Numbered from the stretch's first letter, positions 770 to 27,845 are shown. The stretch is DNA of 32,000 bases from Candidatus Lokiarchaeum ossiferum (GCA_025839675.1 CP104013.1:5700001-5732000); one strand, 5' to 3'. A program made the numbers and translations. The notes: a model not told the origin generated them from the letters alone.

Positions 770-863
770 TATCGTCTTTCCCCCTATTCTTAAACTACTA
801 ATACATCACTGTATTTGCTTTTGAAATTTACTCTTTTATTGTCATGAGTAAAACTTTGATTTT

Positions 864-872
864 AAAAAAAAA
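864..872 (-). terminator. Oligo-T tract (T9 on the coding strand) immediately after the gajB-like stop codon
   Basis: The plus strand shows A9 at 864-872, directly abutting the TAG stop (873-875, minus strand). Oligo-T runs act as archaeal termination signals. This genome is full of homopolymers, so the call is weak. Confidence 0.25.
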
Positions 873-2582
873 CTATATTTGTATTAGGTAAATACATTTT
901 TTTGTTCGGGTTAGAGAAGTAAAACAGATATTATCTTCTTCTGATTTTAATCTGGTTTTTTTTTTTGACGGATTATAATCATAATAAAATACTATATCAA
1001 ATTCTAATCCTTTTCCTTTATGATGTGTCATAACTCGAATTTTATTGGAGTCGTGTGGCAAAATTTGGTCTATATTTATGGCAATTCGCAAATGATTAAG
1101 TAAACTGCTTAATAAAGCCCTGCTATCGTCAGATTCATATTTATTAAAAACAATAAAATTCTGTACCTCCACTGATATTTTTTTTTTAAACTCGGAAGAA
1201 AAAAAATTATCATCGTAATTGAAAATGAAATTAATCAATTTTATTATATTAGAAGTACGTTGAAAAATAAACTTATTTAAATAATCCTGATAATCATTGG
1301 GTAAATCTACAAGCAGTATGGGATTGTGGTTAAGATAAAATTGTAATGAAAAGCAAAATTTATCGAATTCATTAATTTGATCTTCACTAATATCTAATTC
1401 AGATATAGGTATTCCATATTTAATGAGTTCTTTTTTAATTTTCAATACAATTGAATTAGTCCTCGCAAAAATAACGATTGATTCTGCTTTTATTCCCTCC
1501 TTTGTCCAAGAAAGTATTTCATTCTTGATGAATTCTATTTTTTTTTGTAAATTATTTGGATTTATTTCTTTTTGTATAATTTTTGCATCATTTTTATTTC
1601 TGAAATCAACATTTTTAATTAATCCCATGGATAAAGTTTCATTTGTATACTCTATGATATTTTTAGGATTTCGAAAATTTACTTCAAGTTTCAAAAGATT
1701 CGCATTGGTTTTTCTAATAAATTTATCAAAAATTGAAGGAAGACTACCAATCCACTTGTAAATAGATTGATCTTCATCCCCCACAACCATAAGATTTTTT
1801 GTTTGTTGAGCTCTCCATAATAACAAAATGAAATTTAACCGGTAATAGGTGCAATCTTGAAATTCATCTACAAGAATAATTGGAAACTTGATATTCAATA
1901 TATAACGAATATTTTTATATTTTTTAATCATCCAAATTGCACATAACTCCATCAATTCAAATGGTAAAAGCCCATTTTTTATATAATATTTTAAAACATC
2001 TTTAAAATAGTGATATTCTGCTTCCCATGGACAATCTTTTGGACATTTTAGTTCATCTTCACATTTCTCATGAAATTTCCAAAATAGACCATTTTTTGTT
2101 GAAACATCCCCCATCGTAAATTTTTTGCATTTCTTCACAAATTCAGATAATATATTTGTTCTAAATTTCTTTAATTTATTTTGATCACCTTGAACCATTT
2201 TTTGAGAGGGTACAATTAATTCACTTATTTTTTGATTTACTTCTAAAAATTCATTAAATAATAAGTTGCCATGTTTGGATATTAAATAATAATAAAAAGC
2301 GTGAAAAGTTCCAATCCAAATTCTCGATTTAATTGTTTTTTCATCAAATTTTTCATTAATTTGATCTCTCATATCCATTGCCGCTTTGTTCGTGAAAGTC
2401 AAACACAGAATTTTTTGATTTATGTCTAAGTAATTATTTTGAAGCAAAAATTCAATCCTTTTAACTAAAGTATAAGTTTTACCACTTCCTGGTCCCGCTT
2501 TAATTACATATGTTCCAGAAGGTGATTCTATACATAAATTTTGTGATGGAACTTTGATAATAACATCTCCTAATCCTTGCAA
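873..2582 (-). CDS. gajB: UvrD/Rep/PcrA-type superfamily 1 helicase, GajB-like
   Basis: 569-aa ORF with SF1 motifs in order. Motif I is AGPGSGKTYTLVKR and motif Ia is CLTFTNKAAMDM. Motif II is ILVDEFQDCT and motif III is VVGDEDQSIYKWIG. Motif IV is NFRNPKNII and motif VI is VMTHHKGKGLEFDIVF. It overlaps the upstream OLD-family gene by 13 nt, which is the Gabija / class 2 OLD gene arrangement. Confidence 0.85.
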   Translation of the reverse strand: MQGLGDVIIKVPSQNLCIESPSGTYVIKAGPGSGKTYTLVKRIEFLLQNNYLDINQKILCLTFTNKAAMDMRDQINEKFDEKTIKSRIWIGTFHAFYYYLISKHGNLLFNEFLEVNQKISELIVPSQKMVQGDQNKLKKFRTNILSEFVKKCKKFTMGDVSTKNGLFWKFHEKCEDELKCPKDCPWEAEYHYFKDVLKYYIKNGLLPFELMELCAIWMIKKYKNIRYILNIKFPIILVDEFQDCTYYRLNFILLLWRAQQTKNLMVVGDEDQSIYKWIGSLPSIFDKFIRKTNANLLKLEVNFRNPKNIIEYTNETLSMGLIKNVDFRNKNDAKIIQKEINPNNLQKKIEFIKNEILSWTKEGIKAESIVIFARTNSIVLKIKKELIKYGIPISELDISEDQINEFDKFCFSLQFYLNHNPILLVDLPNDYQDYLNKFIFQRTSNIIKLINFIFNYDDNFFSSEFKKKISVEVQNFIVFNKYESDDSRALLSSLLNHLRIAINIDQILPHDSNKIRVMTHHKGKGLEFDIVFYYDYNPSKKKTRLKSEEDNICFTSLTRTKKCIYLIQI

Positions 2583-4360
2583 ATGAATTCCAGAATGGCT
2601 CTTATTTCTTCACGAATATCTTCTTTTACAATAATATTGCCAACAACAAAACACATATATTCGGTTTTATTTTTACTTAAAATGGAAATCAAGCCCTTTC
2701 TTAATAATTTGACTAACTCAATTTGATCTATTTTCTCATATTGATTAAAAATTTCTTCAAGCATTTCAAAACTATCAATCTGTTTATCAAATTTTTTGTT
2801 GTGGTATGTAATTATTTTTGAAATTATTTTGCTTACATTAGAGAATTGAGATTGATTTTCCGCAATATCTTTAATAATCTTGAAGAGGGATGGTATTGTA
2901 AGAGCTTTCCCAATAAGAGATTCAATTGCATTATCTATTTTAAAAACTTCCACTTTTTTGGATTTTAATCTTGCTTCAATTTCACTATTGTCACCTTTAT
3001 CATCATCAATGATCACTTTTATAGATTTTTCAAAAAAATTGTTTGCTTCTACGGCATTTTCAATTTCAGAGCAAGAACCGACATAACGAAGGGAAATACC
3101 TTTATGATTTAAATCATATCGTTCATCTTTCATAGAAAAATATTTAATATACCACCAATCTGTTTTTCCTTCAATAATAATAATTTTTCTCGCAAAAATT
3201 ATATCTGGGAATATTTGAAGAGTATTCAATATCCATTTTTTTAATTTCTTATCTTTGTATTGCTGAATTGATTTGGAATTTACGGTCGTCATATTGTTTA
3301 AACTTTTATGATAAAACAGATAATTCGATTCTTCTGTTGGAAAAGGAATATTTGATGAATGAGTGGATACAATTAATTGATAATTCTCCGAATCTTCCCC
3401 GATCAATTCTTGAATAACATTTCTCCAAAAAGAGATCAAATACCGTTGGCTATGGGGATGAAGATGGATTTCTGGCTCATCAATTAAAATTGAAAAAGAA
3501 TTACTATTCGATTTATATTCTGATTCTAAATATATTTGGAATAAAGTATTTATAAAAAAATTTTTCAACCCATCTCCAATTTCAGTTGGCTGAAATTCTT
3601 TTGATTCTTGTCTTAACAATATTTGAAAATTATAGAGCAATTTTTCCTCAGTAGATAATCCAAATTCCAAAGAAGGATCAAGAATGGCTAATCTTGTATC
3701 ATATTCAAATAAATCTCTTAATTTCTCTTTCAATTTATGATTGAACTCTTTTATTGAACCTCTTTTGTTCAAATTTAAGTTAATTTTCTCAATTATGGCA
3801 ATCAATTCATCTTTCATTGAAGAATCAAGAATTTTCTCTAAAATTTTAGTGAATATTCCTTTTCTATTTCTAAGATTGATTGTTGCTTTTACATCATTAG
3901 TTGAGCTTATAAGCATGAAATAATAATTTTCCAGTAATCTTTTGTAAACTGCGAAATTTTTTTCTTCCATTTCATCAATTATAACAAAAGGATTGATCTC
4001 AATTTCATCTTCGTGATTTTCCACTTTGATTTTTAGAATTAATTCAATATCTTGTGGGTTTGAAGAATCTAAATTTGAGAAATAAGCTTCAAAAGCAGCA
4101 ATTTCTTTAATATTGAAATTTTTAAAAGTTAACCATAATTCAATAGGCTTTTTTTTATCAATAAATTGCTCTAAATTAAAGAAACGATATCTTTCTTGCT
4201 GATTGGAAAAGAATTGCTCAATTAGTTGAAGTGAAAGAGTTTTTCCAATATTATTTTGACCTATTATATAATTCAGGGTATTAAATTTTATAGTGGCATC
4301 TTCAAAGCAAACAAAATTATTAATTTTTAATTGGTTAATTTGCATATTTACACTCTCCAT
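2570..4360 (-). CDS. gajA: OLD-family ABC-type ATPase with C-terminal TOPRIM nuclease domain, GajA-like
   Basis: 596-aa ORF. The N-terminus MQINQLKINNFVCF is typical of OLD/AAA_15-like proteins. Walker A is GQNNIGKTLS, Walker B plus the following His is ILIDEPEIHLHP, and the H-loop is LIVSTHSSNI. TOPRIM Glu lies in IIIIEGKTDWWY and the acidic DxD cluster in VIIDDDKGDNSE. The likely true start is the ATG at 4345 (GGAG 9-12 nt upstream) rather than 4360. Confidence 0.85.
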   Translation of the reverse strand: MESVNMQINQLKINNFVCFEDATIKFNTLNYIIGQNNIGKTLSLQLIEQFFSNQQERYRFFNLEQFIDKKKPIELWLTFKNFNIKEIAAFEAYFSNLDSSNPQDIELILKIKVENHEDEIEINPFVIIDEMEEKNFAVYKRLLENYYFMLISSTNDVKATINLRNRKGIFTKILEKILDSSMKDELIAIIEKINLNLNKRGSIKEFNHKLKEKLRDLFEYDTRLAILDPSLEFGLSTEEKLLYNFQILLRQESKEFQPTEIGDGLKNFFINTLFQIYLESEYKSNSNSFSILIDEPEIHLHPHSQRYLISFWRNVIQELIGEDSENYQLIVSTHSSNIPFPTEESNYLFYHKSLNNMTTVNSKSIQQYKDKKLKKWILNTLQIFPDIIFARKIIIIEGKTDWWYIKYFSMKDERYDLNHKGISLRYVGSCSEIENAVEANNFFEKSIKVIIDDDKGDNSEIEARLKSKKVEVFKIDNAIESLIGKALTIPSLFKIIKDIAENQSQFSNVSKIISKIITYHNKKFDKQIDSFEMLEEIFNQYEKIDQIELVKLLRKGLISILSKNKTEYMCFVVGNIIVKEDIREEIRAILEFICKD

Positions 4361-4367
4361 TTATGTA

Positions 4368-5426
4368 TTAAAATTTATAATCTGGAAGAAATTTATTCCA
4401 ACAATCGAAAAGCTGGTCAATATAATATTTCAACTTGCCATATTTCCGTAGATTAATGATTTTCTTAACATAGACCCTCTGAAAAATATTAATTTTATCT
4501 ACCACAAGTTGCTCATCGTCTTTGAATTTAGAAGAAATCTTGAAATGACCCTTTTCCCATGCTTCCTTAAATTTTACTTCCAAATCGCTCTCCATATTAG
4601 AAGGAATAACTCCAAAATCTGCATTTCTTGGCAAAAAGTACATCCAACCGAAATTAGGGTTTGCATTTTTACCATTTTTGGTCAATTTATTAAGGTTATA
4701 ATACGAGACGTGCAAATTTTTTACGAATAATCTCACCGTATTCCAATTTTTTGCATACATTTGATATTGAAACCAAAAACTATCAATTAAATTTGCTGTG
4801 GTAATAAAATGGGCTTCCAGTTTAGCAATTTTTAAGTTTGATAACTTGAATTCAAAAAGATTAGGTTTTAATTTCTTTTTTTCCCAAAATGTCTTTAAAG
4901 GGATTTCCAACTTATTTATCAATTCTTCATCAATTATTCTATCGGTATATCTAATTTCTTTATAGTATGTATCCATATTTAGATGCAGGAAATCTTCAAG
5001 CAAGTGATTGAGATTTTTAATTTTTTTTTTATCTTTCATTTCTTGGATTATAGGATGATCTAAAAATTTCTTTTCTAAGTTTCCCAATATCATTGAATCG
5101 TTATTTACCGCTTTTTCTTTGTTCTTCTGAAAAATGGGAACAATTTGAACTTTAGATATTGACCACCATTCATCTAAAAAGTGAAAAAGGTGCCCTTGAA
5201 CTCCTCCAAAATGACGGGTGATGCGATCTTTAAAATTTTTCGTGCTTCCAATATAAAGCATTTGTTCCTTTTCTTCTTGAGGAGGCTTTCCCCAAAATAT
5301 ATAAATTCCTCCTAATTTCTCTTCAGTTTTCTGAATTGGAAAATGTTCTCTAAGCTCCCTAAACATTTCTTGTAAAACATTGGTGTACACAAGTTCATTA
5401 TTTTTTATTTCATTTTTTTGATTCAT
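4368..5426 (-). CDS. GIY-YIG nuclease-domain protein with a large uncharacterised C-terminal region
   Basis: 352-aa ORF. The N-terminal segment GGIYIFWGKPPQEEKEQMLYIGSTKNFKDRITRHF resembles the UvrC/Cho-type GIY...YIG...R..H core. A downstream LEKKFLDHP is a candidate for the catalytic Glu. The remaining ~230 aa have no motif I recognise. The gap to gajA-like is 7 nt and to the upstream gene 15 nt. Confidence 0.6.
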   Translation of the reverse strand: MNQKNEIKNNELVYTNVLQEMFRELREHFPIQKTEEKLGGIYIFWGKPPQEEKEQMLYIGSTKNFKDRITRHFGGVQGHLFHFLDEWWSISKVQIVPIFQKNKEKAVNNDSMILGNLEKKFLDHPIIQEMKDKKKIKNLNHLLEDFLHLNMDTYYKEIRYTDRIIDEELINKLEIPLKTFWEKKKLKPNLFEFKLSNLKIAKLEAHFITTANLIDSFWFQYQMYAKNWNTVRLFVKNLHVSYYNLNKLTKNGKNANPNFGWMYFLPRNADFGVIPSNMESDLEVKFKEAWEKGHFKISSKFKDDEQLVVDKINIFQRVYVKKIINLRKYGKLKYYIDQLFDCWNKFLPDYKF

Positions 5427-13064: not shown

Positions 13065-13472
13065 TTAAAACAAATAGGACTTTACATGTAAGTGGGGGAT
13101 TTTTGGTAGGATTTTTTCTGTAGTGTGAAATGTGGCTTTCTTTTGCAGAGCGATAGCAATTGCAATACAATCATTGTAAGATAATTTGGCTCGATGCTGA
13201 CATTTCAACCTTCCTGCTTGAACAATTAACTCATGAGATAAATCCACAAAGTTGATATCAAATGCTCGATAAAATGATTGCAACACAGATTCGGCATAAT
13301 TGTGCCCTTTTAACACACACAAGTGTTTAAACACTTCAAGAAGGATTTCTTTAGCAATGAATGTGTTAGCGGGATTTGTTTTGATTAGCTCCATTAATAA
13401 ACTGAACTCTTTTGGAGTGTTTTGTAAGAAATAAAGAGAAAGGACGCCTGCATCCAAACAATGAAAGACCAT
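13065..13472 (-). CDS. vapC: PIN-domain toxin, VapC-like
   Basis: 135-aa ORF. An N-terminal acidic residue sits in MVFHCLDAGVLSLYF (cf. LDTSVL). Late acidic/small residues sit in LSYNDCIAIAIALQKKATFHT, typical of PIN. Its start is 1 nt downstream of the stop of the AbrB-type gene. Confidence 0.7.
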   Translation of the reverse strand: MVFHCLDAGVLSLYFLQNTPKEFSLLMELIKTNPANTFIAKEILLEVFKHLCVLKGHNYAESVLQSFYRAFDINFVDLSHELIVQAGRLKCQHRAKLSYNDCIAIAIALQKKATFHTTEKILPKIPHLHVKSYLF

Positions 13473-14348: not shown

Positions 14349-17300
14349 TTAAAGATCTGGAATCATATTGATTAAGGTGACTATTATTTCCCCATTTTCA
14401 GTTAAATTTAAGTGTTCATCAATCAATTCCAGTTGTTGTAACCTCAATATGGATGGAATTACAACCAAAATTTTTGTTTTATTTTCTAAGTCTTTTTGAT
14501 TTTTAATTCCTTCTTCTATTGTTTTTAAAACCAATCGTTCTTCCTTTGAAAGTTGTTGGATAAAAGGTTTAAATTTTTCAGCTAAGGCTTTTGTCCGTGG
14601 ATTAACAGCAAACACAACTCCTTCCGCTCTTAACTCGTGGATTGAATTAAAAGTAGTGATCTCTTTTTTACCGTACGCGGCTAAGGCTATAATCATGTCC
14701 CGAACTTTAAAGCTGCAATCAAAATTCACTTTAGCTTCTTTAACAATCAATGATTGCACTGATTTCTTTCCATAAGACTTTAAAAATCCGGGCACTTTGG
14801 ATAAGATCAGATTATGGGGATATAGTAAATCCACATGCAGCATTTCTTCCACAATTTTCATAATGGGTTCTCTTGGAATTTCTTCCCCGATCCAATTATT
14901 AAAAATCTCCTTATGGGTATCTTCAAGTTTTTGATTGAATTTCTGAACGCTCTTTTTCATAGATTCACCTGGAGATTTTAGAAGTAAAACGGCTGTCCGA
15001 ATAAATTCCCCATCTTTTACCACAATTTTAAATTGCTGGTATGAAAGTTCTTCCAATCCTTGATTCCCATCCATGGGTGTTGAGTTACTTTCTAAATTCA
15101 TTTCTGGCTTCAAATTTGATCCAATTTCCTTTCCAAAAGAAGAAATTGCGGACAAAAATCCACTAATTAAATTGGCATCTATTGGAATATTTGAAAAGCT
15201 TTGCGAAAATAAAGATAATCCATTTTGTTTATGTATTATCAACATATATTGGATATTTTCAATATCTGCAAATTGTCGATGAATTTCAATCATTTGAAGT
15301 CGACGTTTGTTTCGTTTCGGAACATAAATTCCTCGATATGTTACCATACTTAAAACTATAAGACTAACCAAACTAATAGAAATAGGGAGAACATTATCCC
15401 AAATTATGATCCAAGTGTTGATAACTCTCACATTGTATAAATTATCTTGATTAGCGTTAAGGTTTGTAGTTTCATAAATACTGCTCGCCTCAAATATCGG
15501 TACTATTGTGAAACTACCTACTGAATCTACTACTATTGTTGTAGTTGCAATTCCTTCAGCGTTAGTGCTAGCAGTCGTATCAGAAATGGATTCTCCAATA
15601 GAATTTCTTAAAATAAATCGAATCGTTTGACCTTGAAGTTCTTTTCCATTTTCATCAATAAGTTTGACCGAAAATGTAAAATCTCCCGAAAAATCCTCTT
15701 TAACTTTAGTGTCCAATAGAATTAAGGTCGTTTTTAATCTTGGTAATATCGAATAGCTAATTACTTTTTGAAAACTTGATATTTTAGAAGTTCCCGAAAA
15801 GCTAATGCTAATATTCATCCAATCCCCACCATCATCAAATGGAATTTCATAGGAAATGTAGATCGATGAATTAATGATTATGGTATCGGTTAAATAGATC
15901 GAAGAACCTGCAAAATAGATGATTATCGTTGTTTCCAGACCATTCAATGTCTCGACACTAGATGAATTTGTGAATAATGCTTGGATGTTGTAATCGGTTA
16001 TTGCCCCATGTCTAAGATCCTCTTGGATATTCACAATTTCGAAATTAACATCCCACTTATCCCAAATATCAATTGTATAGACTATCATGAAACTTTGAAT
16101 TGTCGAGTTTCCTTGGAAATTTAAGGTAATATTTAGCCAATCGCCACAATCTTGAGGTATTTCATAATCTATGACAATAATACCTGAAAAACCGAACCAA
16201 GCTTGCCGAATAATGGGATCCATTCCTTCATATTCATAGATTATGAAAATTGATTCAGTATAAAATGAAAAGTTACATGAAGAATCTAAATATTTGGCTA
16301 AAATGTTTAAATCAAATTCTTCTCCAATTCGGTACATCGATTTCAAATTTGTAATTTCAAATGAAGTTTCCCATTTCATAAGGATTACTTGATCAACTAT
16401 ACTTGCACTTGCATAGCCATTTATCGCAGTTCCTGCATAATCAATAAAAAAAGTAATATTTTGATACCCATCAGGAATGGCTGGGGTAAGATATTCATAC
16501 ACTCCATCTTCATTAACATAAATTTGTTGAATAAAAACTAAGTTTTGATTATCCCCATCTACCCAAGCAGCTACAGTTAAATAAATGTCAATATAGTCTT
16601 CATATGAACTAATTGACAAATTTCCCGATAATATTACCTGATATCCTACCCTCAGCATAGAGTCTGCATCTAATTCTATGCTTAAGTTGACTGAATTTTT
16701 TCCCTTTATGAAATTGTTTAAGTCTGCATAGGATGAATTTTGAATATATGGAGTTCCGAGATAAATAACATGAACATCCAGTGTTGTTTCAGCATATTCA
16801 CTTGATATCATCTGCGAATATGAAATCATACCAAATCCATCAGTTGTTTTAAAAATTTGGAGGGATTCGAATCCATCAAAGTTCAAGATAATTTGTATTT
16901 CTGCATCGAAAATCGGGGAACTATTTAATATATATGATAAATTAACAACTAAATCCATTATTTTTCCAATTTGGAGTGATTCTGTGAGTAGGATGTTTAT
17001 TTGAGACTCCTTTTTCTCCAATATTTGGAAATTTGATTGAATCCAAGATGCATTTTCACAATTTATCAGATTTGCTGTTATTTCTAGTATATATATGCCT
17101 GGTTCTAAATGAAATCCATCTTCGGTAAAATCAATTGAAGAAGCATACACTCCTGAAAGCAAATTTGTCAAGTTTCCATAAGCAAGCATTTCAAAACTTT
17201 CATTTTGTATTTTCCACGATAAATCCCCCCCACTTAATGGCAATGGGCTTTCTATTTGGTTTATATTGTCAAATGTTGCATAAATATCTACTTTCGATTC

Positions 17301-20300
17301 TTCGTATAAAGGTTCCAAGGTATTACTCACTAATTGAGTTGCAATAGGGAGAATCGCCGTTGAGAATTCGATGTAAGTACTATTGTATCCATCTAAAGAA
17401 ATGGTAAGAGATAGGGTATAATTAAAAGTATCCATTCGAGATGTAGTATTTAAGCCATAGGCATTAAGATTTATATAATAAAGACCTCTATCTGATTCCT
17501 TTTGAGTTTGCTGGTAGATATCTACACCATAAAAAATATTATCTGTCCCATTAAATTTCCCCGTTAGTTGTCCATTTGATAATGGTGCTCCATTGGAAGA
17601 ATTGGTCACATTAACTTCAATTGTACTCTTTTGATTGTCATCAACCCTCGGCAAATTATTAGAATGGATCAATCCTGTATATATATCAGTATTAAATGCC
17701 CCAGAAATAATATTCATACTCATAGGATATCCAGATATTTTAATTATTGAATATAATTTAACTTCGTCATAAAATGGATATGTTACTTCAATAAATATAT
17801 CATAATTTCCAATAGGGACAGATCTCGTTTTGAATTCAAGGGTATAATTCCCTTCAGATCCAAAACTGGAATTTTCGTAAACTTCTCCTATCAAGTATTG
17901 ATTTGGAGGCCAATCAATCCCCCACAAATTTTCAGAATCTGACCAAAATATATTCAAATAATTCTCAGCCCCCGAAATTGGAAGTCCTTTTTCATGAGAT
18001 ATGTTTAAATAGAAATTGCCTACATCTCCAGAATTCAATTCGTTCATTTTTTGAGTAATATTGGCATTTAAGGAACGCCATACTTCAAAAGTACCTCTGG
18101 CAATCCCCAATTGTGTTGTTTGACCACCTTCTGTATTGTTCCATATTGCATAAATTGAATATTCTCCGACTCCAGTATCGTTAATAATCCAAGATGAGTC
18201 TGTTAAATTGCCTGATATATGTGGAAAGTATGCGGGAAATTGAGGGATTATTTCATTTGATGCATCAAATATTGTGATGTTATAATTTCCTTCAACTTCT
18301 TCAATATTTGATTGGTTTACCTGAAGAATTGTAGAATTTTGATCATAAAATCTTGTGTTTTCGGGGGCATCATCATGAATGAGAAATACATCGGCCAAAC
18401 AATTTTTTGAAGAATATGTAAGAATCCACGTCCCGTTGATATAATTAAAATCATTCAATTTTTCTGTTGCCTCAGCTATAGTCAAATTTTGACTATTTGG
18501 GTTGTTTTGACTACCATTTGTTGAAAATCCCTTGGCATATTCTGGTGTTACCCCTGTCGGATCAACACCTCCCGTCCAAAGCCAATCTGTTGAATTTTCT
18601 CCCAATCCATCATAAGCAGGTAAATCCACTACCGTAAAGTTGTAACCTCTGGGATTGAAATTCTCATACTCATGATTGATTAGTTGATCGAAAGTATTTG
18701 CATTATCGTACGAGACATTCCAAAGAATCCGTTCAGGTGCAATTTCTGAAAAACTCGGAATGATGTAGGTTGCCGATGCGTTATTTGATTGATTCCTTGA
18801 AATAATTAGGTTATCTTCAAACTCAAGAAAACTTGATGCATATAATGGGTTAGTGATGTTAAAAGCCATGGTAAGGTTGTTATTTTCTAGTGGAACTTTA
18901 GAATCAATGCCAAATTCTGTTTGGTTTATCCAACTTGTGCCATTCCACCGTTGCAATCCTACCTTTGTTAAATTTGGTTGATTATAAATGACCTCCAAAA
19001 AAATATCATCAAAGGATACCGAAAAATCCCAAGTGTGAGGTCTCTCCCCTCCCAAATTTAAAATCCCTAAATGAAATATAAATTGGTCAGAATTTAGGAT
19101 TGATTTGTGGCGAGTTGATAAATTATATTGTAAATTTTTTGATTCTTGCGGTGCTGTAAATATATCATCAATGAATCCTAATGGGACAAATATTTCACTC
19201 CCAGAATTATTAGCAAATACTGAAAATAAATACCAATTTCGCATTTGAAAGGTATTATCAAAATTAATCTCGCATTCAAATTCTAAATTTCCAATATCAT
19301 ATTGATCTTCCTCAATTGCTCTTATAAAAACCCCGCCAAACGACACTTGAACTTCATCACTTGTATCATTGATATTTTCAAACCAAATCCCAAAATCTAA
19401 AGTATGATTCGATTTTTGAGAATCAATAAGCTCAGTAATATCAAAAATTCTGACTACATAATCATGACCTAGCGGTTCTCCAATATTTGCTAGTGAATTT
19501 TCTAAGGTCGTTGCAGTGGCATTTGGATAACTTACCCCATTCGTGTCTGTTCTTCCATCAATATATTGACCATCAATTCTGGCTATTATACTCAAATTGT
19601 CTGAAGCTTCGAAACTTAATGCTTCTACTTTCCAATATGTGATAAACTCATATTTTTTAGGGATAAAATCTGGAGCAGTTAGTTCTGGAAAAACAACATT
19701 CCAGCCTATCGAGGGGTTACCTAAAGTAAGTAAACTACTTCCCGCATGTATATATGCTTGCAATGATTCGTCCACATCATTATATTCAAGTCTTCGATTT
19801 GAAGCTTTCTTGTCTCCTCCATATGGATTATCAAAGTCCCTTTCCCAATTACTTCCTGATATTCCAATCAACTCATCACCCCAACTTGGTTCCTCATTAA
19901 ATTGATTATATAATGCAAATTCTGAATTACCTGTTGATATAAGTTCCGTTTCATGAATTTCTGCTTCTGGATCTGGTTTTGTGATATCTTCTTGTGACCA
20001 CACTGCCAAGGCGTCTCTTGGTATATATGGATTGATAACTCCATTATCAGCTGTACTAATAATTCCGAGCTCATTTGAATAATCACCACGGAATCCCCAT
20101 GAATCGTCAGAAACATATTGAGATGCAGAAAAATCCCATTCTCTTTCCATGGATGATGCCTCTATACTCCCATCTCGAGTGATGTTCCATTCTTGAGCAA
20201 TTGCGTCAATATTCATAGTGTGTGAATTTATATTCCAATTTTCGGGAATTCCAATCGTGAAGTTTTCTGTGGAAATGTCTAAACGAGATTTCTCAGCTGT

Positions 20301-20579
20301 ACTTTGAATTGCTTCAAGAACATCAAACGTGGCGACATTTTCCATCACATAGTCATTTTCAAAACTTGTTTCAGGGTTTCCTAAAAATTCCCTTAAGATA
20401 TCATCATCTTTCACTTGAAAATTGTCCTGATTTGTTGATTTATCCACTAAATCATCATCTAAGTTGAATTTATTATCCATAGAGTTGCTCTCATTAGAAT
20501 ATGAAGTGATTAAGGAAAATAAAATGAGAAGAACTACAAGTATTTTATTAAATTGATTCCATTTTTTTATTCGAGCCAC
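14349..20579 (-). CDS. Giant (2076 aa) bitopic surface protein with a large extracellular region, one late TM helix and a ~330-aa cytoplasmic tail
   Basis: GTG start at 20579 with AGGGGT upstream. The N-terminal signal/anchor is KILVVLLILFSLITSYS. About 1700 aa of Asn/Ser/Thr-rich sequence follow, with dozens of N-x-S/T sequons and Ig-like repeats. The TM helix VLPISISLVSLIVLSMV (nt 15342-15392) is followed by the positive stop-transfer YRGIYVPKRNKRR. Then comes a soluble tail with an alpha/beta regulatory-type module and a possible winged-helix-like end. Confidence 0.85.
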   Translation of the reverse strand: MARIKKWNQFNKILVVLLILFSLITSYSNESNSMDNKFNLDDDLVDKSTNQDNFQVKDDDILREFLGNPETSFENDYVMENVATFDVLEAIQSTAEKSRLDISTENFTIGIPENWNINSHTMNIDAIAQEWNITRDGSIEASSMEREWDFSASQYVSDDSWGFRGDYSNELGIISTADNGVINPYIPRDALAVWSQEDITKPDPEAEIHETELISTGNSEFALYNQFNEEPSWGDELIGISGSNWERDFDNPYGGDKKASNRRLEYNDVDESLQAYIHAGSSLLTLGNPSIGWNVVFPELTAPDFIPKKYEFITYWKVEALSFEASDNLSIIARIDGQYIDGRTDTNGVSYPNATATTLENSLANIGEPLGHDYVVRIFDITELIDSQKSNHTLDFGIWFENINDTSDEVQVSFGGVFIRAIEEDQYDIGNLEFECEINFDNTFQMRNWYLFSVFANNSGSEIFVPLGFIDDIFTAPQESKNLQYNLSTRHKSILNSDQFIFHLGILNLGGERPHTWDFSVSFDDIFLEVIYNQPNLTKVGLQRWNGTSWINQTEFGIDSKVPLENNNLTMAFNITNPLYASSFLEFEDNLIISRNQSNNASATYIIPSFSEIAPERILWNVSYDNANTFDQLINHEYENFNPRGYNFTVVDLPAYDGLGENSTDWLWTGGVDPTGVTPEYAKGFSTNGSQNNPNSQNLTIAEATEKLNDFNYINGTWILTYSSKNCLADVFLIHDDAPENTRFYDQNSTILQVNQSNIEEVEGNYNITIFDASNEIIPQFPAYFPHISGNLTDSSWIINDTGVGEYSIYAIWNNTEGGQTTQLGIARGTFEVWRSLNANITQKMNELNSGDVGNFYLNISHEKGLPISGAENYLNIFWSDSENLWGIDWPPNQYLIGEVYENSSFGSEGNYTLEFKTRSVPIGNYDIFIEVTYPFYDEVKLYSIIKISGYPMSMNIISGAFNTDIYTGLIHSNNLPRVDDNQKSTIEVNVTNSSNGAPLSNGQLTGKFNGTDNIFYGVDIYQQTQKESDRGLYYINLNAYGLNTTSRMDTFNYTLSLTISLDGYNSTYIEFSTAILPIATQLVSNTLEPLYEESKVDIYATFDNINQIESPLPLSGGDLSWKIQNESFEMLAYGNLTNLLSGVYASSIDFTEDGFHLEPGIYILEITANLINCENASWIQSNFQILEKKESQINILLTESLQIGKIMDLVVNLSYILNSSPIFDAEIQIILNFDGFESLQIFKTTDGFGMISYSQMISSEYAETTLDVHVIYLGTPYIQNSSYADLNNFIKGKNSVNLSIELDADSMLRVGYQVILSGNLSISSYEDYIDIYLTVAAWVDGDNQNLVFIQQIYVNEDGVYEYLTPAIPDGYQNITFFIDYAGTAINGYASASIVDQVILMKWETSFEITNLKSMYRIGEEFDLNILAKYLDSSCNFSFYTESIFIIYEYEGMDPIIRQAWFGFSGIIVIDYEIPQDCGDWLNITLNFQGNSTIQSFMIVYTIDIWDKWDVNFEIVNIQEDLRHGAITDYNIQALFTNSSSVETLNGLETTIIIYFAGSSIYLTDTIIINSSIYISYEIPFDDGGDWMNISISFSGTSKISSFQKVISYSILPRLKTTLILLDTKVKEDFSGDFTFSVKLIDENGKELQGQTIRFILRNSIGESISDTTASTNAEGIATTTIVVDSVGSFTIVPIFEASSIYETTNLNANQDNLYNVRVINTWIIIWDNVLPISISLVSLIVLSMVTYRGIYVPKRNKRRLQMIEIHRQFADIENIQYMLIIHKQNGLSLFSQSFSNIPIDANLISGFLSAISSFGKEIGSNLKPEMNLESNSTPMDGNQGLEELSYQQFKIVVKDGEFIRTAVLLLKSPGESMKKSVQKFNQKLEDTHKEIFNNWIGEEIPREPIMKIVEEMLHVDLLYPHNLILSKVPGFLKSYGKKSVQSLIVKEAKVNFDCSFKVRDMIIALAAYGKKEITTFNSIHELRAEGVVFAVNPRTKALAEKFKPFIQQLSKEERLVLKTIEEGIKNQKDLENKTKILVVIPSILRLQQLELIDEHLNLTENGEIIVTLINMIPDL
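15744..16379 (-). repeat. Two tandem ~106-aa (318-nt) Ig-like repeats inside the giant protein, with a third divergent copy upstream
   Basis: Repeat 1 is KWETSFEITN...YEIPQDCGDWLNITLNFQGNSTIQSF. Repeat 2 is DKWDVNFEIVN...YEIPFDDGGDWMNISISFSGTSKISSF. The anchoring Trp residues (aa 1403 and 1509) are 106 aa apart. The preceding YLTPAIPDGYQNITFFIDYAGTAING looks like a degenerate earlier copy. Confidence 0.6.
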
Positions 20580-21435
20580 TACTATAAACCCCTTTTAATT
20601 TATTACATTCAAACATAATCTGTTTGATGGAAATTTCTAAATATGTTTTAACTATTAGTTTTTCAAATTTTAAATATTGACTGTGAAATTAAGGAAGAAC
20701 TAAAATTAATAACACAAAGTAAGATCTTACGCTTTTTTTTTGATTACCGTCAAGCGACTTGGGTCAAAAATGGACTGATTTTTACCTTCCATTGTAGGAA
20801 TTTCAATTTTAGATTTCTCAAAGAATAGGGTTCCCGCTGCAACCCGATAATGGGAGGTCTATTATTTTCCGAGAAATCTGATGACAAGAAGGTAGAAATG
20901 TTCATTTTCAGGAGTTTTATTTCTGAGTTATTTTTCATCCTCAAGATTTCTTAGAATGTCTCCCTCTTGGGCAGCATCATCTGAGAAAAATGACTTTGTG
21001 TTGAAAAAATCGGTGACCGCTAGTAACTTGACTTATATTTTGTTGTTTTACGTTATTGATACATCAAGAATTACAACCATCTTCACTTGATGCTAATTAA
21101 TTATTCTCGTCACAGCTATATAAGCGATGGAGTATGCTTCTCCCCCAGTTTTATTTATTATTTATTATTTTTTTTGCTTACTGTCAATTATTATTAGGAT
21201 CATAAGTAAAATCGCTAATCCAATGAACATTAATAGGATGTGATTAAAATTTAGGCTAACAAAATATTTTCGGACCATTTTTATATAATGAAACAAGATT
21301 GTGAATAGGAGATTGTGTGTATAAAAAAATATCCATGTTTTTAAAAAGCCATTTCCAACCAGAAGGAAAAGATCGAAGGTGAGATCTTTCCTAGAGGATG
21401 AATAGATTAAATCTATTTTTTAATACAGATCATGG

Positions 21436-22293
21436 CTACCTAAAGATTTCTGCGAGTTCCCTTATATTGAAGACACTCACCGGAGCGAAACCATTGCTTT
21501 CTTGTCTTTTTATAATCTCTTTGGCATATTTATGTCGAAAATTGCGCAAAAAATTCTGTAATTTTCTTCTTAGGGTAATTGAAGATCGATCTGCCACGAC
21601 AAACGCTGTTAAAGTCCCATGGGTTTCTAACATTATCACAAAACGATCCTTTTCAATCAGCCGAATATTTCCCGATTGTTTTAATATTTCGTTGGTTAAG
21701 ATCGATATTGCTGATAACGATCCTCCTAATATGGTGACAAAACCCGCTGTGACATCTTCTTGTAAAAAATGTCTCCCTAAAACAAGTCCAGTATCAATTT
21801 CCATGACACATACTAAATAGGGGGTTCCTGGCGGAAGAAGAATCGAGTTCCATTCGATAAGATCTTTTGTGGAAATCACACCGATGGGTTGTCGTTTAAC
21901 ATTTCCCAAAATGGCTCTTTTAAACCCTGTTTGTTGTAATTTACCAATTAATTCATCTATTGGAGTTCCCATCCGCATTATATCGATTGGGCCTCTCATA
22001 ATTTCTTTCGCTCGAGTATCGTGTAATAAATTTTTTCCTCCTGCCAGTAAACCATAAAAATCTAAATGGTTCCGTTGTTTTACAAGAAATCGAATGATAT
22101 CCGTATGAGAAATGATGTAATATTCAGTTAAATTATTTATATCTTCAACTACTACTGCAGAAATTTGCTTCGTATCCATGATTTTTAACACATTGATCAA
22201 TCGTTCATTTTTTTCCACTAAATGAACTCCTACATGGGCAATTTCTTCAACTGACAATCCATAACTATAACTTTCTATTTGTTTAATCTCCAT
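21436..22293 (-). CDS. CBS-pair (Bateman) domain protein with a C-terminal longin/roadblock-like alpha/beta module
   Basis: 285-aa ORF with two CBS motifs. CBS1 is LINVLKIMDTKQISAVVVED...YYIISHTDIIRFL. CBS2 is IMRGPIDIMRMGTPIDELIGKLQQTGFKRAILGN...PIGVISTKDLIEW. The C-terminal ~125 aa are YLVCVMEIDTGLVLGRHF...ILGGSLSAISILTNEIL...RFVIMLETHGTLTAFVVAD...LRRKLQNFLRNF, with a beta-beta-alpha-beta-beta-alpha pattern. Confidence 0.8.
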   Translation of the reverse strand: MEIKQIESYSYGLSVEEIAHVGVHLVEKNERLINVLKIMDTKQISAVVVEDINNLTEYYIISHTDIIRFLVKQRNHLDFYGLLAGGKNLLHDTRAKEIMRGPIDIMRMGTPIDELIGKLQQTGFKRAILGNVKRQPIGVISTKDLIEWNSILLPPGTPYLVCVMEIDTGLVLGRHFLQEDVTAGFVTILGGSLSAISILTNEILKQSGNIRLIEKDRFVIMLETHGTLTAFVVADRSSITLRRKLQNFLRNFRHKYAKEIIKRQESNGFAPVSVFNIRELAEIFR

Positions 22294-22556: not shown

Positions 22557-23396
22557 TTACATTCCAGTTTCGCCAGGTTGTAACACTCCTGCAAAAACAA
22601 ACCAGGCCAATAACGTTTTCGCCACTAAACTCAATATAATATAAACTCGTTCTCCGAATACATAGTCTTTCCAGGGACCGACTTTAAGATATTGCAAAAG
22701 CATATTGAAGGCAAATGACATAAACAGAGCGATTTCAAATCCATAGATATATGGAACAAACCATGGAACTCCATCGACTTGCATGGCACTATAAAATACT
22801 GCTGTGATTACGATCCATGGAATAATTCCCGCAATCCAACCATAAATATAACTGGTCCAATTGGTTTTTTTGGTGTATTGATTATGTAATTCCATTGTAT
22901 GGCCAAAGAGATTCATCAAGGCGTTTAACATGAATATGAGAAACAAAATCCAAAATTCCTTTACACCGAATAAAACTGCGATGAAGAAAATCATAATGGA
23001 ACTTGAGATCGCATATTCAAACCATCGAAGTGGATTCATACGTTTAGCTAAATTTTTTTTGTAAAATTTCTTCATTGGTCCAGCTAATAAGAAATGGGCA
23101 ATGGCGGAGAAAAACAGAAAGGATGCGACAATTGGGCCTACGCTTTTCAGTGTCCAAAACACATCTTCCGAAAGCACAAAATTGGGGTATTCGACTTCCA
23201 AAATATAGATAGAAGCTTGAAAATTTTTCAGATTATCGATAGTAAAACCCATGATGAGCATGAGAGAGGCTTGTACAAAATGCAAGATTCCCATGATGAG
23301 GTTAAATCGCGTCAATTTATCAAAATCCACAGGAGATTTTGATCCATCAGTGTAGATGATCCCATGGGAATCATCTTCCTTTACATTGGATGACAT
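22557..23396 (-). CDS. Heliorhodopsin (7-TM retinal protein, inverted-topology rhodopsin family)
   Basis: 279-aa polytopic ORF. It matches my recollection of heliorhodopsin 48C12-type signatures along its whole length. ILHFVQ carries the TM1 His. SAIAHFLLAG carries the TM2/3 His. NPLRWFEYAISSSIMIFFIA carries the TM3 Glu counter-ion candidate, E127. AGIIPWIV is also conserved. GERVYIILSLVAKTLLAWFVFAGVLQP carries the TM7 Schiff-base Lys candidate K260, at nt 22617-22619. Confidence 0.85.
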   Translation of the reverse strand: MSSNVKEDDSHGIIYTDGSKSPVDFDKLTRFNLIMGILHFVQASLMLIMGFTIDNLKNFQASIYILEVEYPNFVLSEDVFWTLKSVGPIVASFLFFSAIAHFLLAGPMKKFYKKNLAKRMNPLRWFEYAISSSIMIFFIAVLFGVKEFWILFLIFMLNALMNLFGHTMELHNQYTKKTNWTSYIYGWIAGIIPWIVITAVFYSAMQVDGVPWFVPYIYGFEIALFMSFAFNMLLQYLKVGPWKDYVFGERVYIILSLVAKTLLAWFVFAGVLQPGETGM

Positions 23397-24581: not shown

Positions 24582-27500
24582 TTATTTATTCTTCATTTTA
24601 CTCATCATAAGCACCATTGCTGCAATTGCGATTAGCATTCCTCCCGCTCCAAGCCATGTTCCGGGGTTGTTAAACCAAGACGCAAGGGAATCTTCGTCAG
24701 GAGAAGTGGAACCTACAAGAATGTAAATGCTATCAGATTCGACAGAATATCCATTTTCATTTACAGCCTTTATGTAGACATAAAACTCCCCATCATGATC
24801 GAAACTGATTTCAATAGAAAGATCAGAGGTCGTATCATTCAGGATTCCATCAACATAAATCAGATACCACAATGCACCTTCAACTGGATTCCATGAGATT
24901 TCTAAAGAACTTGTGAAAATATGTTGACTTTCTGTAATCAAAAGAGGTATCTCTGGTAAAAGCTTAACTGTGATTATCACCGGTGCAGAAAAACTCGATT
25001 CAGTTAAAACACTTTCAGAAGTTACGGTAATTGAATAATTGCCGTCAGATCCCAAAGAGAGTAATGCACTTGTCAGTTGAGTCGTTAGAGTGAAAATTCC
25101 ATTAATGTATACATTGTATTTTGAAATATTTTGAACTTCATTCCATTGGATTACCACATTCTGGGTATTTATTTCTTGATTTACGGTGATTATAATAGGT
25201 TTATCAGGATATATACCAGATATTAGGGGATAGTTATCAACATCTCCAGATGTTCCAGAAATTGCATAGGATATTCCCCACACATCTCCAACTTTTTGTG
25301 TGACGTTATAATACCGTACATAATAATCATCCCAATAATTTCCATAATTTCCATTATCCCAATGATTATTTGTCCCATCATCTATAGCTTGAGTCTCACC
25401 ATTTCCCACAAAATTATTCATCCATATTACATTTTCCGATGAATCGAGTAGTATAGAGACTCCTGTTTTATTGTTGTTTTGAAGTATATTTGCATTAATT
25501 TTATTATTATTCGAATCTGTTAATAAAATTCCTTGATTACTCATATCAGATAAAATATTATTAATAATAAGGGAATGGTTTGTATTTGTTAATGCAATTC
25601 CTATTGAACAATTAGTAAAACTGTAGTTAGTAATTATGAAGCGATCACAATTAATCAAAATAATTTGTCCTGCACTATTGACTAACCCATTTAGTAAAAT
25701 TTGTTCTTGATTTTCATAATAGAGCAAGGGATTGTTATTAACTAAATTTGATTGGAATATAGAATTATTCACTGAACTACCAACATAAAAACCACAATTT
25801 TCTAAAATGTTTTCGGAAAATGTGTTGTGACCGCTGGAAATTAATCGAATCCCAAATTCCATGGAATTTTCTATTGTATTCATAGTGAATGTATTATTCT
25901 CTCCGTATAAGATATAAATACCATTTTGTGAATGATTGCTCAAAGTATTGTTAGAAATAGTACAATTTTTTGATTGATAGATATATATTCCATCCCCCCC
26001 ATTTTTATCAAGTAAATTACCATTAACCGAAATATTGAGAGATAAATAGATCATTATGCCTGAATATTTATTGGAATTGACCTCATTTCCAATTAAATCG
26101 GTAAAATCAGAATTATATAAAATTATACCAACGTTCCCTAAAGTTGCAATGTTGTCCGAAATATTGTTTTTATCTGAATCGAAAAGCGAAATTCCACTTC
26201 CATCATGATCCTCTAAATTATTGTTAATTATTTTATTTCTATGTGATTGTGAAAGAAATATCCCATCCCCCTCTATAATAGTCGTTGTACTAATAAGATC
26301 CAAATTATTGCTAATGTCATTCCCAATAATTTCATTATCATCGGATAGGAAAAGAAAAATACCCTTATTTTGATTAGTAGATGCTTCATTCTCAAGTATA
26401 GAATTATTATGAGAATCAAATAGTGAGATACCTATTATGTTATTAAATTCGAAAACATTGGTGGAAATATTATTTTCATCAGATTCATGAACATATAATC
26501 CTGCATTGTCATTATGGCCAACATTATTCATATAGATCGATGTATTATTGGATGAAGAAAGATAAACTCCGTATGAATTATTATTTATAACATTGTCAGA
26601 AATAGAGTTGTTAACAGACGAGGTTAATCTAAGACCATCTAAAAGATTACATTCAATACTATTATCATAAACGGTGTTATTATTGGAAATTTCAAAAATC
26701 ATACCATTTTCATTATTATCTCTCAAAATATTTGCAGATACTATACTAATGTTGGAATTATATAGACGTAATCCGCTTAAAGTATTATTAATAATTGTGT
26801 TTTCAAATAAAGTGTTATTTAATCCGCTATATAATCGAATTCCATATAGAGATTGATTAAATACGGTATTTTCTAATATATCATTATAATCTGAATTATA
26901 GAGATAGATTCCATTTTCACTGTTACTATTTATGGAATTATTTGAGATAATGTTATTATCTGAACTTTCAGCATAAATCCCATCCTCATTTTGATTAAAT
27001 ATATTATTTGAAATATTATTTTTATTAGAATGATATAATCGTATACCATTATCAAATAGATTTTCATTCGCAGTATTACCAGAAACGTTATTATTGTCCG
27101 AAATGAATAAATAAATCCCAGAAGCATGGTTTGCATTGACTTTGTTTTCAGTAATGGTATTGTTCTCTGAATTATTGATATAGATTCCATGATCTGAAAT
27201 TGTATTTGAGACATTATTTCTATTTATGGAGTTACTGTGCGAATTATCTAAGGTTATCCCATAAATTTGATTTGCATCGACATTATTTCTTTCAATGCTG
27301 TTATTATTGGAATTTCTTAGGCTAATCCCATGATAGCTATTTGTTTCTACAATATTATCTACGATAGTGTTATTATGCGAATCATCCAATATGATTCCGT
27401 GTTCATCGTTTGAAGATGTGGTACAATTATTGATCAATATATTCGTACTATTATACAAACGAATACCTCCATTTCCCGATTCTAAACCGCAATTAATTAT

Positions 27501-27845
27501 AGTGCAGTTGATTATTTCAGCATAAACTCTTGAATTCGAAATTAAAATTCCATTTCCAGCACCTAAACAATCAATTTCAAAATCCCTAATTATATAGGGA
27601 TCTCCATAAATACCACTTCCCGTTTTATCTGCAAAATTTGTCCAATTCGAAGGAGAATTCTCAGTAATATAGATCGGTAAATGAGTGATGCTTGATTTGG
27701 GTTTTAAAGTAATTGGGTTTAAATCAACCTCATCAAAATTATTTGAAATTTTCAATAATTGTGCTCCTCCTCCAAAGGAAAAGACGCATATTATTGATAA
27801 CGAGAGTAAAATTGTTTTTATTTTTATCTTTTTCATTTTAATCAT
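24582..27845 (-). CDS. Secreted/anchored right-handed parallel beta-helix (PbH1/NosD-like repeat) protein with two FN3-like domains and a C-terminal TM anchor
   Basis: 1087-aa ORF. The signal peptide is KIKTILLSLSIICVFSFGGGA. More than 25 tandem ~22-23-aa repeats follow, of the form N-x-I-x-x-N-x-(I/V)-x-x-N-x-x-x-G-I-x-L (e.g. NNTITENKVNANHASGIYLFISDNNNVSGNTA). Two FN3-like modules follow (VVIQWNEVQNISKYNVYINGI... and LEISWNPVEGALWYLIYVDGI...YVYIKAVNENGYSVES). The C-terminus is PGTWLGAGGMLIAIAAMVLMMSKMKNK. N-x-S/T sequons are very abundant. Confidence 0.85.
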   Translation of the reverse strand: MIKMKKIKIKTILLSLSIICVFSFGGGAQLLKISNNFDEVDLNPITLKPKSSITHLPIYITENSPSNWTNFADKTGSGIYGDPYIIRDFEIDCLGAGNGILISNSRVYAEIINCTIINCGLESGNGGIRLYNSTNILINNCTTSSNDEHGIILDDSHNNTIVDNIVETNSYHGISLRNSNNNSIERNNVDANQIYGITLDNSHSNSINRNNVSNTISDHGIYINNSENNTITENKVNANHASGIYLFISDNNNVSGNTANENLFDNGIRLYHSNKNNISNNIFNQNEDGIYAESSDNNIISNNSINSNSENGIYLYNSDYNDILENTVFNQSLYGIRLYSGLNNTLFENTIINNTLSGLRLYNSNISIVSANILRDNNENGMIFEISNNNTVYDNSIECNLLDGLRLTSSVNNSISDNVINNNSYGVYLSSSNNTSIYMNNVGHNDNAGLYVHESDENNISTNVFEFNNIIGISLFDSHNNSILENEASTNQNKGIFLFLSDDNEIIGNDISNNLDLISTTTIIEGDGIFLSQSHRNKIINNNLEDHDGSGISLFDSDKNNISDNIATLGNVGIILYNSDFTDLIGNEVNSNKYSGIMIYLSLNISVNGNLLDKNGGDGIYIYQSKNCTISNNTLSNHSQNGIYILYGENNTFTMNTIENSMEFGIRLISSGHNTFSENILENCGFYVGSSVNNSIFQSNLVNNNPLLYYENQEQILLNGLVNSAGQIILINCDRFIITNYSFTNCSIGIALTNTNHSLIINNILSDMSNQGILLTDSNNNKINANILQNNNKTGVSILLDSSENVIWMNNFVGNGETQAIDDGTNNHWDNGNYGNYWDDYYVRYYNVTQKVGDVWGISYAISGTSGDVDNYPLISGIYPDKPIIITVNQEINTQNVVIQWNEVQNISKYNVYINGIFTLTTQLTSALLSLGSDGNYSITVTSESVLTESSFSAPVIITVKLLPEIPLLITESQHIFTSSLEISWNPVEGALWYLIYVDGILNDTTSDLSIEISFDHDGEFYVYIKAVNENGYSVESDSIYILVGSTSPDEDSLASWFNNPGTWLGAGGMLIAIAAMVLMMSKMKNK

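Follow-up and report, generated by a model that had tools for sequence, protein, structure and literature searches.

A longin-fold module in the tail of a giant surface protein and in a neighbouring CBS-pair protein of Candidatus Lokiarchaeum ossiferum

The machines with which eukaryotes run membrane traffic and sense nutrients have longin and roadblock domains among their core parts. That these domains have expanded in Asgard archaea is among the main arguments for an archaeal origin of the machines, and the function of the archaeal copies is almost unexplored. About 41 longin-like domains are known in Lokiarchaeum, and 130 roadblock/longin asCOGs show extensive domain shuffling, including fusions with two-component domains; the genes usually lie outside GTPase operons (PMC4917890, PMC10933270, bioRxiv 10.1101/2020.10.19.343400). 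Later work found longin families to be enriched in L. ossiferum. Published Asgard longin fusions involve GTPases, TRAPPC3, DENN and two-component domains, and NPRL2-like longins occur fused to two-component signalling domains. As in TRAPP, Mon1-Ccz1, Ragulator and MglB, longin/roadblock domains serve as homo- or heterodimeric platforms (PMC10933270). Here we analyse a stretch of 32,000 nucleotides (nt) of the Candidatus L. ossiferum genome (GCA_025839675.1 CP104013.1:5700001-5732000; 'the window'), in which a gene for a soluble protein with a pair of CBS domains is followed by a gene for a giant surface protein with a cytoplasmic tail.

The first-pass annotation of this DNA proposed that the tail and the CBS protein share a longin/roadblock-like module and that the CBS protein, sensing an adenosyl ligand, docks on the tail through it, the two forming a dedicated signalling pair. 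The shared module is borne out by the analysis; the pair is not. It is probable that both proteins carry one Asgard-restricted branch of the longin fold and that they are neighbours by accident or through recent lineage-specific history rather than as a dedicated system. The two genes are indeed consecutive and co-directional, both on the minus strand, though 856 bp apart. The features on which the argument turns are as follows (aa, amino acids; ORF, open reading frame).

21436-22293, minus strand: gene for the CBS-pair plus longin-module protein, 285 aa, soluble product (ORF, Pfam, homologues)
21844-22251, minus strand: CBS pair (Bateman module), about aa 15-150 (Pfam CBS PF00571)
21442-21822, minus strand: longin-fold module of the CBS protein, aa 158-284 (structure model, Foldseek, profiles)
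20580-21435: spacer of 856 bp between the CBS-longin and giant genes
14349-20579, minus strand: gene for the giant type-I surface protein, 2076 aa (ORF list and translation)
15336-15413, minus strand: single transmembrane helix, aa 1723-1748, hydrophobic stretch WIIIWDNVLPISISLVSLIVLSMVTY, followed by RGIYVPKRNKRR
15258-15317, minus strand: juxtamembrane helix, aa 1755-1774, joining the transmembrane helix to the module (helix at residues 6-25 of the tail model)
14823-15254, minus strand: longin-fold module of the tail, aa 1776-1919 (structure model, Foldseek, profile search)
14352-14816, minus strand: C-terminal helical region of the tail, aa 1922-2076 (structure model, pLDDT about 90)

The three block pairs that the annotation had aligned by hand are present exactly as quoted, all six peptides included, at aa 1778-1795, 1804-1819 and 1850-1887 of the giant ORF (nt 15248-14919) and at aa 160-177, 188-203 and 217-254 of the CBS ORF (nt 21816-21532). 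They share 15 identities over 72 positions, and the middle block alone is strong (8/16 identical, BLOSUM62 score 33). BLASTP of the tail against the CBS protein gave no high-scoring segment pair in the claimed register, and the best Smith-Waterman alignment, which is the 16-residue middle block, lies at chance level (z = 1.2, matched by 133 of 1000 shuffles). Pairwise comparison thus cannot establish homology.

Profile comparisons confirm that the two modules are distant but real homologues. The hhalign comparison of two 8-sequence family alignments gave 91% probability (E 1e-6, 101 columns) in the register of the hand alignment. Word-indexed homologue searches were shallow (7, 8 and 15 proteins), and the family became visible only with an exhaustive HMMER scan. 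A deep tail profile, made from 147 modules among the top hits of that scan and containing no CBS-family sequence, matched positions 15-125 of its 142 to the CBS family, at 27.6-35 bits (E 8e-4 to 0.17, scaled to 1.84e9 sequences). When this deep alignment was compared with the CBS modules by hhalign, the probability rose to 97.4% (E 1.4e-11, 102 columns), so that the check which the annotation had suggested gives significant similarity in the register that it had drawn. The reciprocal profile, built from eight CBS-family modules, finds tail modules at the correct position in more than 20 independent Asgard genome loci. In MAFFT alignments the two families keep a common register as far as the last helix, and each segment is also conserved among the members of its family (alignments A1 and A2).

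Structures were predicted with AlphaFold2 (AF2) for the CBS-protein module alone and for the whole tail; what we say about fold refers to these predicted, not experimental, models. The tail model has a predicted local distance difference test score (pLDDT) of 82.7, and that of the CBS module a pLDDT of 80.1 and a predicted TM-score of 0.77. Both show the order β-β-α-β-β-β-α-α, to which the CBS copy adds a third C-terminal helix (strands at residues 9-16 and 22-27, helix 30-58, strands 63-66, 69-76 and 79-85, helices 90-116 and 128-135). The tail module has the juxtamembrane helix in front of it and a disordered loop between α1 and β3. Its α1 carries the signature D-x2-LISGFLSAIsSFGkE, an instance of the family hallmark D-x2-L-I-S-G-F-L-x-A-I-x-S-F; α1 of the CBS-protein module reads ILGGSLSAISILTNE.

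Foldseek searches of the PDB returned almost exclusively longin or roadblock domains among the top 50 for each model (E 1e-4 to 6e-3). The longin matches comprise AP sigma, mu-N, zeta-COP, Sec22b, VAMP7, Ykt6, TRAPP Bet5/Trs23, BLOC-3, Mon1-Ccz1 and Fuzzy-Inturned, and the roadblock matches Ego3, LAMTOR, HBXIP, MglB and a roadblock protein of MK-D1. Among the matches of the CBS module are Sec22b, AP sigma, zeta-COP, BLOC-3, Mon1-Ccz1, MglB and LAMTOR, and among those of the tail AP sigma, TRAPP Bet5/Trs23, zeta-COP, Fuzzy-Inturned, MglB and LAMTOR; both lists thus contain roadblock domains. TM-scores reach 0.62 for the CBS module (Sec22b) and, with normalisation to the target, 0.66 for the tail; AP sigma scored 0.5-0.54 and TRAPP Bet5/Trs23 0.57-0.66 (normalised to the target). 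The two models and their Foldseek neighbours agree with the fold class that the annotation had named, and within it the predicted topology is that of longin rather than roadblock domains. Membership of the Roadblock/LC7 family (PF03259) was considered and rejected: the CBS module lacks the N-terminal helix and has three C-terminal helices, the tail module two. One relative gave a sub-threshold match to Robl_LC7 (E about 0.1). A PAS/GAF-like or profilin-like small-ligand domain was rejected because of the strand order and the Foldseek list.

Among sequence families, PF19036 (Fuz_longin_1, which describes the first longin of Fuz, Mon1 and HPS1) was matched by 4 of 27 diverse relatives (best E 7.6e-7). 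One of these matches lies in a full-length relative (L051:2974-3960), in which PF19036 scores 27.5 bits against a gathering threshold of 26.1 and is followed by winged-helix matches, as in the tail. Weak matches to Longin, Sybindin, MAPKK1_Int and Robl_LC7 also occur among the relatives. Searches of PDB sequences with the module profile and with the C-terminal region of the tail produced noise only (Argonaute, E 0.12; an S100P chimera, E 0.12). GTPase-activating protein (GAP)-type longins of the FLCN/SMCR8/NPRL2 class are marked by a GP motif in the β1-β2 loop and by an arginine finger (PMC12290439). By inspection the GP motif is absent from both window modules, whose β1-β2 hairpins read HKQNGLSL (tail) and EIDTGLVL (CBS), with the G conserved; the Pfam models NPR2 and Folliculin gave no match.

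The family to which the modules belong is large. The exhaustive HMMER scan with the tail-module profile found at least 959 protein clusters at E <= 1e-3, 435 of them at E <= 1e-10; the best 150 of the 959 were available for inspection, and the relation to the CBS family was tested with the separate 147-module profile. A transmembrane helix lies less than 60 aa upstream of the module in 127 of 165 proteins examined (median gap 28 aa), and a membrane-proximal module on a large surface protein is the commonest architecture. Most of the proteins that carry it are large surface proteins of 600-2800 aa, extending up to 7032 aa. Stand-alone modules of 142-171 aa exist as well, as do fusions to a HerA-like ATPase, to a polytopic membrane protein and to a winged helix. 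The distribution was assessed in one genome per GTDB species (alignment A3), a sample biased to members carrying LISGFLSAI. All of the 49 genome loci recovered that are named below the level of 'uncultured archaeon' are Asgard, except for one 'Bathyarchaeota' bin; the lineages include Promethearchaeum MK-D1 and Hod-, Hermod-, Sigyn-, Hel-, Odin-, Sif-, Baldr-, Jord- and Heimdallarchaeota.

In the giant protein, a hydrophobic, signal-like leader at the N-terminus is followed by an ectodomain of roughly 1690 aa that is rich in glycosylation sequons and has one match to the Ig-like domain Big_1 (aa 1634-1705, E 7.6e-7, 29.6 bits, under the Pfam cut-off of 34.9). The public gene call (P0017, 2043 aa) begins at Met34, and starting at the GTG at 20579 adds the hydrophobic leader. 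A leader of this kind is likewise present in the orthologue L056, and the longer ORF is probably the true one. After the transmembrane helix 327 aa remain, with the module about 28 residues in from the membrane. NxS/T sequons number 52 in the ectodomain and 3 in the tail, and within 15 aa of the transmembrane helix there are six K/R residues after it and one before. Because of this K/R-rich stretch and the few sequons, we place the tail in the cytoplasm and the module next to the membrane, as the annotation had done. Full-length relatives of 1900-2300 aa with 25-42% identity occur in other Lokiarchaeia, and the protein is part of a full-length-conserved set of about 1950 aa.

Beyond the module, the C-terminal helical region of the tail is kept within the giant-protein family (alignment A1). 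It is possibly made of two winged-helix-like units, judging from the AF2 model; winged helix-turn-helix matches are all sub-threshold (PF24409, E 0.02-0.2, three members), and the region has no PDB sequence match. The arrangement of a module followed by a winged helix-turn-helix recurs in a Baldrarchaeota relative.

The CBS pair of the second protein is real (Pfam CBS, E 5.7e-9, 36.6 bits against a cut-off of 24), with two stretches of which the better lies at aa 95-148. Both CBS motifs contain the ribose-binding pattern h-h-S/T-x-x-D, read from the translation as IISHTD and VISTKD. CBS pairs sense adenosyl ligands and regulate the domain attached to them. From this established behaviour we infer that the pair here would bind such a ligand. 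Its longin module is the most divergent member of the family seen (27.6 bits, against at least 80 bits for the 150 best-scoring members). The CBS-longin architecture was found in eight related clusters of 44-68% identity, all of them Lokiarchaeia-like; those with a taxon name are Lokiarchaeum. A further CBS-longin gene of the same organism lies beside proS, at the canonical locus (L063 6001-6933); the two paralogues are 65% identical. The copy in the window is without orthologue among the sampled genomes, its closest database relative being 68% identical.

Synteny between the two gene families, which a dedicated pair would lead one to expect, is not seen to be conserved; the annotation had listed such an absence among its refuting outcomes. 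At six other CBS-longin loci (L001, L002, L004, L005, L006 and L063) the CBS-longin gene is preceded by proS, on its own strand, and followed by rpiA in convergent orientation. A module-profile scan of flanks of up to 10 kb in L001, L002, L004, L005 and L006, and the called genes of L063, revealed no second module gene. The giant side is represented by two loci, a metagenome scan with the N-terminal region of the giant protein having returned one. Upstream of the orthologue in L056 (2305 aa) are a glyoxalase-like and an aminoglycoside-phosphotransferase-like gene, and L003 contains a tandem of two giant-type genes without a CBS gene. Heliorhodopsin, CBS-longin and giant genes in this order turned up only in sequencing runs of the organism of the window, as identical copies.

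The spacer between the two window genes contains no ORF longer than 64 aa, and Rfam and tRNA searches of it were without match. T-runs follow directly on the CBS-longin stop codon, and at the other end the GTG at 20579 is preceded by a TATA-like box and by a GGGG ribosome-binding-like site. These signals suggest that the two genes are separate transcription units. An antisense ORF over the module-coding part of the CBS gene (21398-21820, plus strand, 140 aa) was rejected as a gene; it is the minus-strand frame that is conserved across genomes.

Elsewhere in the family, 10 of the 49 Asgard loci have two module-bearing genes within about 3 kb of each other, among them the following.

L041, 1342-5983
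L047, 1336-5942
L048, 69-5112
L045, 1357-6329
L051, 1238-3960
L038, 2065-3920
L034, 2236-4505
L033

Examples are a conserved convergent pair of transmembrane proteins of about 760 aa (36% identical), a HerA/DUF87 ATPase with a module beside a ten-transmembrane-helix protein with a module (L045), and a membrane protein beside a soluble protein with a module and a winged helix. In this biased sample, where adjacency is enriched roughly five-fold over background by a coarse estimate, module genes may show a family-wide tendency to pair. Around all loci no ORF with small-GTPase motifs was found, a weak negative because the motif filter was strict; this agrees with the published remark that such genes lie outside GTPase operons.

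How are these observations best explained? A convergent or chance resemblance, in which two unrelated α/β domains happen to share a short SAIS-containing helix, would fit the pairwise result (z = 1.2, no BLASTP high-scoring segment pair) and the strong similarity in one short block only. It is highly improbable in view of the profile-profile E of 1.4e-11 over 102 columns, the hidden Markov model matches obtained both ways from profiles built independently, the single MAFFT register to the C-terminal helix, and two independent AF2 models with equal topology and equal Foldseek neighbours. If homology is accepted, the CBS-longin protein could still be the dedicated partner of the adjacent giant protein, a longin heterodimer coupling adenosyl-ligand sensing to the receptor. 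In its favour are the homology of the modules, which belong to a fold class known for homo- and heterodimers, and the co-directional adjacency of the genes. An extra divergent paralogue away from the canonical proS locus is what a specialised copy might look like, and module genes are often adjacent in other Asgard genomes (10 of 49), including soluble-plus-membrane pairs such as that in L045. We nevertheless regard this reading as unlikely. The arrangement is known from one organism only and pairing is absent from six other CBS-longin and two giant-family loci; the 856-bp spacer has terminator-like T-runs and separate start signals; and the CBS module is the most divergent one seen (27.6 bits, against at least 80 for the 150 best). 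CBS pairs, moreover, normally homodimerise, which would favour a longin homodimer. With no conserved adjacency and a module spread over at least 959 clusters, the dedicated signalling pair put forward in the annotation is not supported. The pairing is most likely incidental, or at most lineage-specific, because the genes are neighbours in this genome only.

Some points weigh against the reading that we prefer, an Asgard longin branch whose two members here are neighbours by accident or recent history. No curated longin model matched the window modules, which have no Pfam or NCBIfam match, in Pfam even at E <= 1-10; these searches covered both proteins and sets of 36 and 27 family modules. The incidental nature of the adjacency is argued from comparative genomics only. 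Since the CBS-longin protein of the window is a divergent extra paralogue without orthologue, its own synteny is not comparable across species, and a lineage-specific pairing with the receptor may exist. Finally, adjacency in 10 of 49 loci makes neighbouring module proteins plausible partners, although this is suggestive only. A different view would make soluble longin proteins general adaptors on the juxtamembrane longins of many surface proteins, a hub in which adjacency is irrelevant. Hundreds of membrane-anchored module proteins coexist with soluble and stand-alone forms in the same lineages, the α1 motif is strikingly conserved across architectures and recognisable in the CBS proteins, and module genes are frequently adjacent. 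Yet the hydrophobic α1 may be conserved simply for core packing, and the neighbours of the canonical CBS-longin gene are housekeeping genes (proS, rpiA, argS), a hint at a metabolic rather than a surface role; we think such a hub rather improbable.

On the preferred reading, that of two members of one longin branch without a dedicated partnership, the juxtamembrane module would be a dimeric docking platform on the inner face of the membrane, by likeness to longin/roadblock domains, and a further longin module, or one of the numerous small GTPases of Asgard archaea, might be its partner. The simplest reading of the CBS-longin protein is a self-contained homodimeric sensor, which we favour because CBS pairs normally dimerise and would bring two longin modules together; an adenosyl ligand on the CBS pair could then alter how its own longin dimer engages a partner. 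We also speculate, as a bolder and unlikely possibility, that there is an Asgard-wide outside-in signalling layer, in which cytoplasmic longin half-sites on hundreds of surface proteins are completed, through heterodimerisation, by soluble longins (CBS-longin energy sensors, stand-alone modules, ATPase-longin proteins). If true, membrane-anchored longin/roadblock platforms such as Ragulator, TRAPP and SRα-SRβ would have a prokaryotic forerunner in this layer, and the extra paralogue of the window beside its longin-tailed receptor would be one such pair. If the idea of CBS docking is wrong, the locus consists of two members of a large domain family, unrelated and next to each other by chance.

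The window as a whole is AT-rich (GC about 27-35%, except for a 43% stretch at 10-12 kb). The genes closest to the pair, and those of a defence island of lower GC (about 27%) at 56-5426 on the minus strand, are listed here.

22557-23396, minus strand: heliorhodopsin gene (Pfam E 9.5e-81), in the same direction as the CBS-longin gene and 263 bp upstream of it
13065-13472, minus strand: PIN-domain toxin gene, next after the giant gene in minus-strand order
56-769, minus strand: Pycsar-like cyclase (PycC E 3e-20), in the defence island
873-2582, minus strand: Gabija GajB/UvrD helicase, overlapping GajA
2570-4360, minus strand: Gabija GajA/OLD-TOPRIM ATPase, in the defence island
4368-5426, minus strand: GIY-YIG nuclease-domain protein, after the Gabija pair in the defence island

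On a contig of the same organism (L057), a MazE-type antitoxin gene precedes the PIN-domain toxin gene. A further large surface protein of 1087 aa is encoded at 24582-27845 on the minus strand; it has NosD/right-handed beta-helix repeats, a C-terminal transmembrane anchor and no cytoplasmic module. The longin tail is thus not universal among the large surface proteins here.

What the locus adds is a large, uncurated longin branch built into Asgard surface proteins on their cytoplasmic side, with a divergent copy fused to a CBS pair. Its main interest might lie less in the proposed signalling pair than in a handle on how the Asgard cell surface is wired to cytoplasmic longin/GTPase systems. Ca. 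Lokiarchaeum ossiferum is in culture, and proteins that bind the tail could there be sought as a link from the cell surface to small GTPases or the cytoskeleton.

Of the described systems, the nearest curated sequence family is that of the PF19036 longins (Mon1-Ccz1, Fuzzy-Inturned, HPS1-HPS4), through the 4 of 27 relatives that match it, and chains of BLOC-3, Mon1-Ccz1, Fuzzy-Inturned and CPLANE are among the Foldseek matches of the window modules. Tri-longin Rab guanine nucleotide exchange factor (Rab-GEF) subunits act as heterodimeric small-GTPase platforms at membranes. The window modules, in contrast, are single longins, fused to a transmembrane surface protein or to a CBS pair, they give no PF19036 match even at relaxed E-values, and no GTPase gene was found near the loci. 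The best structural matches are TRAPP Bet5/TRAPPC1 and Trs23/TRAPPC4, AP sigma and zeta-COP (3cue_A/C, 2j3t_C; TM-scores 0.5-0.66 normalised to the target). These small TRAPP and adaptor chains have the same β-β-α-β-β-β-α-α order, and some family members give sub-threshold Sybindin matches. They are, however, soluble subunits of multi-subunit complexes, their identity to the modules is 8-16%, and the window lacks a TRAPPC3/Bet3-like or adaptin partner.

The longin SNAREs Sec22b, VAMP7 and Ykt6 likewise combine a cytoplasmic longin and a membrane anchor in one polypeptide, and the Sec22b longin is the highest-scoring match of the CBS-protein module (TM-score 0.62). In SNAREs, which are tail-anchored proteins, the longin is N-terminal and is followed by the SNARE coiled coil. 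In the giant protein, which is type I with an ectodomain of 1700 aa, it comes after the transmembrane helix and is followed by a winged-helix-like region, and there is no SNARE motif. Roadblock/LC7 proteins (MglB, LAMTOR/Ragulator, Roadblock2 of MK-D1, PDB 9jq8) have the five-stranded core and the logic of a dimeric platform in common with the modules, Ragulator being a membrane-tethered roadblock scaffold for nutrient-sensing GTPases. Their order is α-β-β-α-β-β-β with at most one C-terminal helix, whereas the window modules have two or three in the longin arrangement. With CBS-fused regulators (MgtE, ClC, IMPDH, CBS-pyrophosphatase, AMPK gamma) the second protein shares a canonical CBS pair, the attached domain being in this case a longin.

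In the literature searched, neither a juxtamembrane longin on giant surface proteins nor a CBS-longin fusion is described, and no paper combines 'CBS domain', 'longin' and 'archaea'; the family may be catalogued among the asCOGs. The known Asgard longin expansion, in the same phylum, likewise consists of heavily duplicated longins shuffled into non-eukaryotic architectures, and we regard the module as a variant within that expansion, to which it contributes a juxtamembrane and a CBS-fused form.

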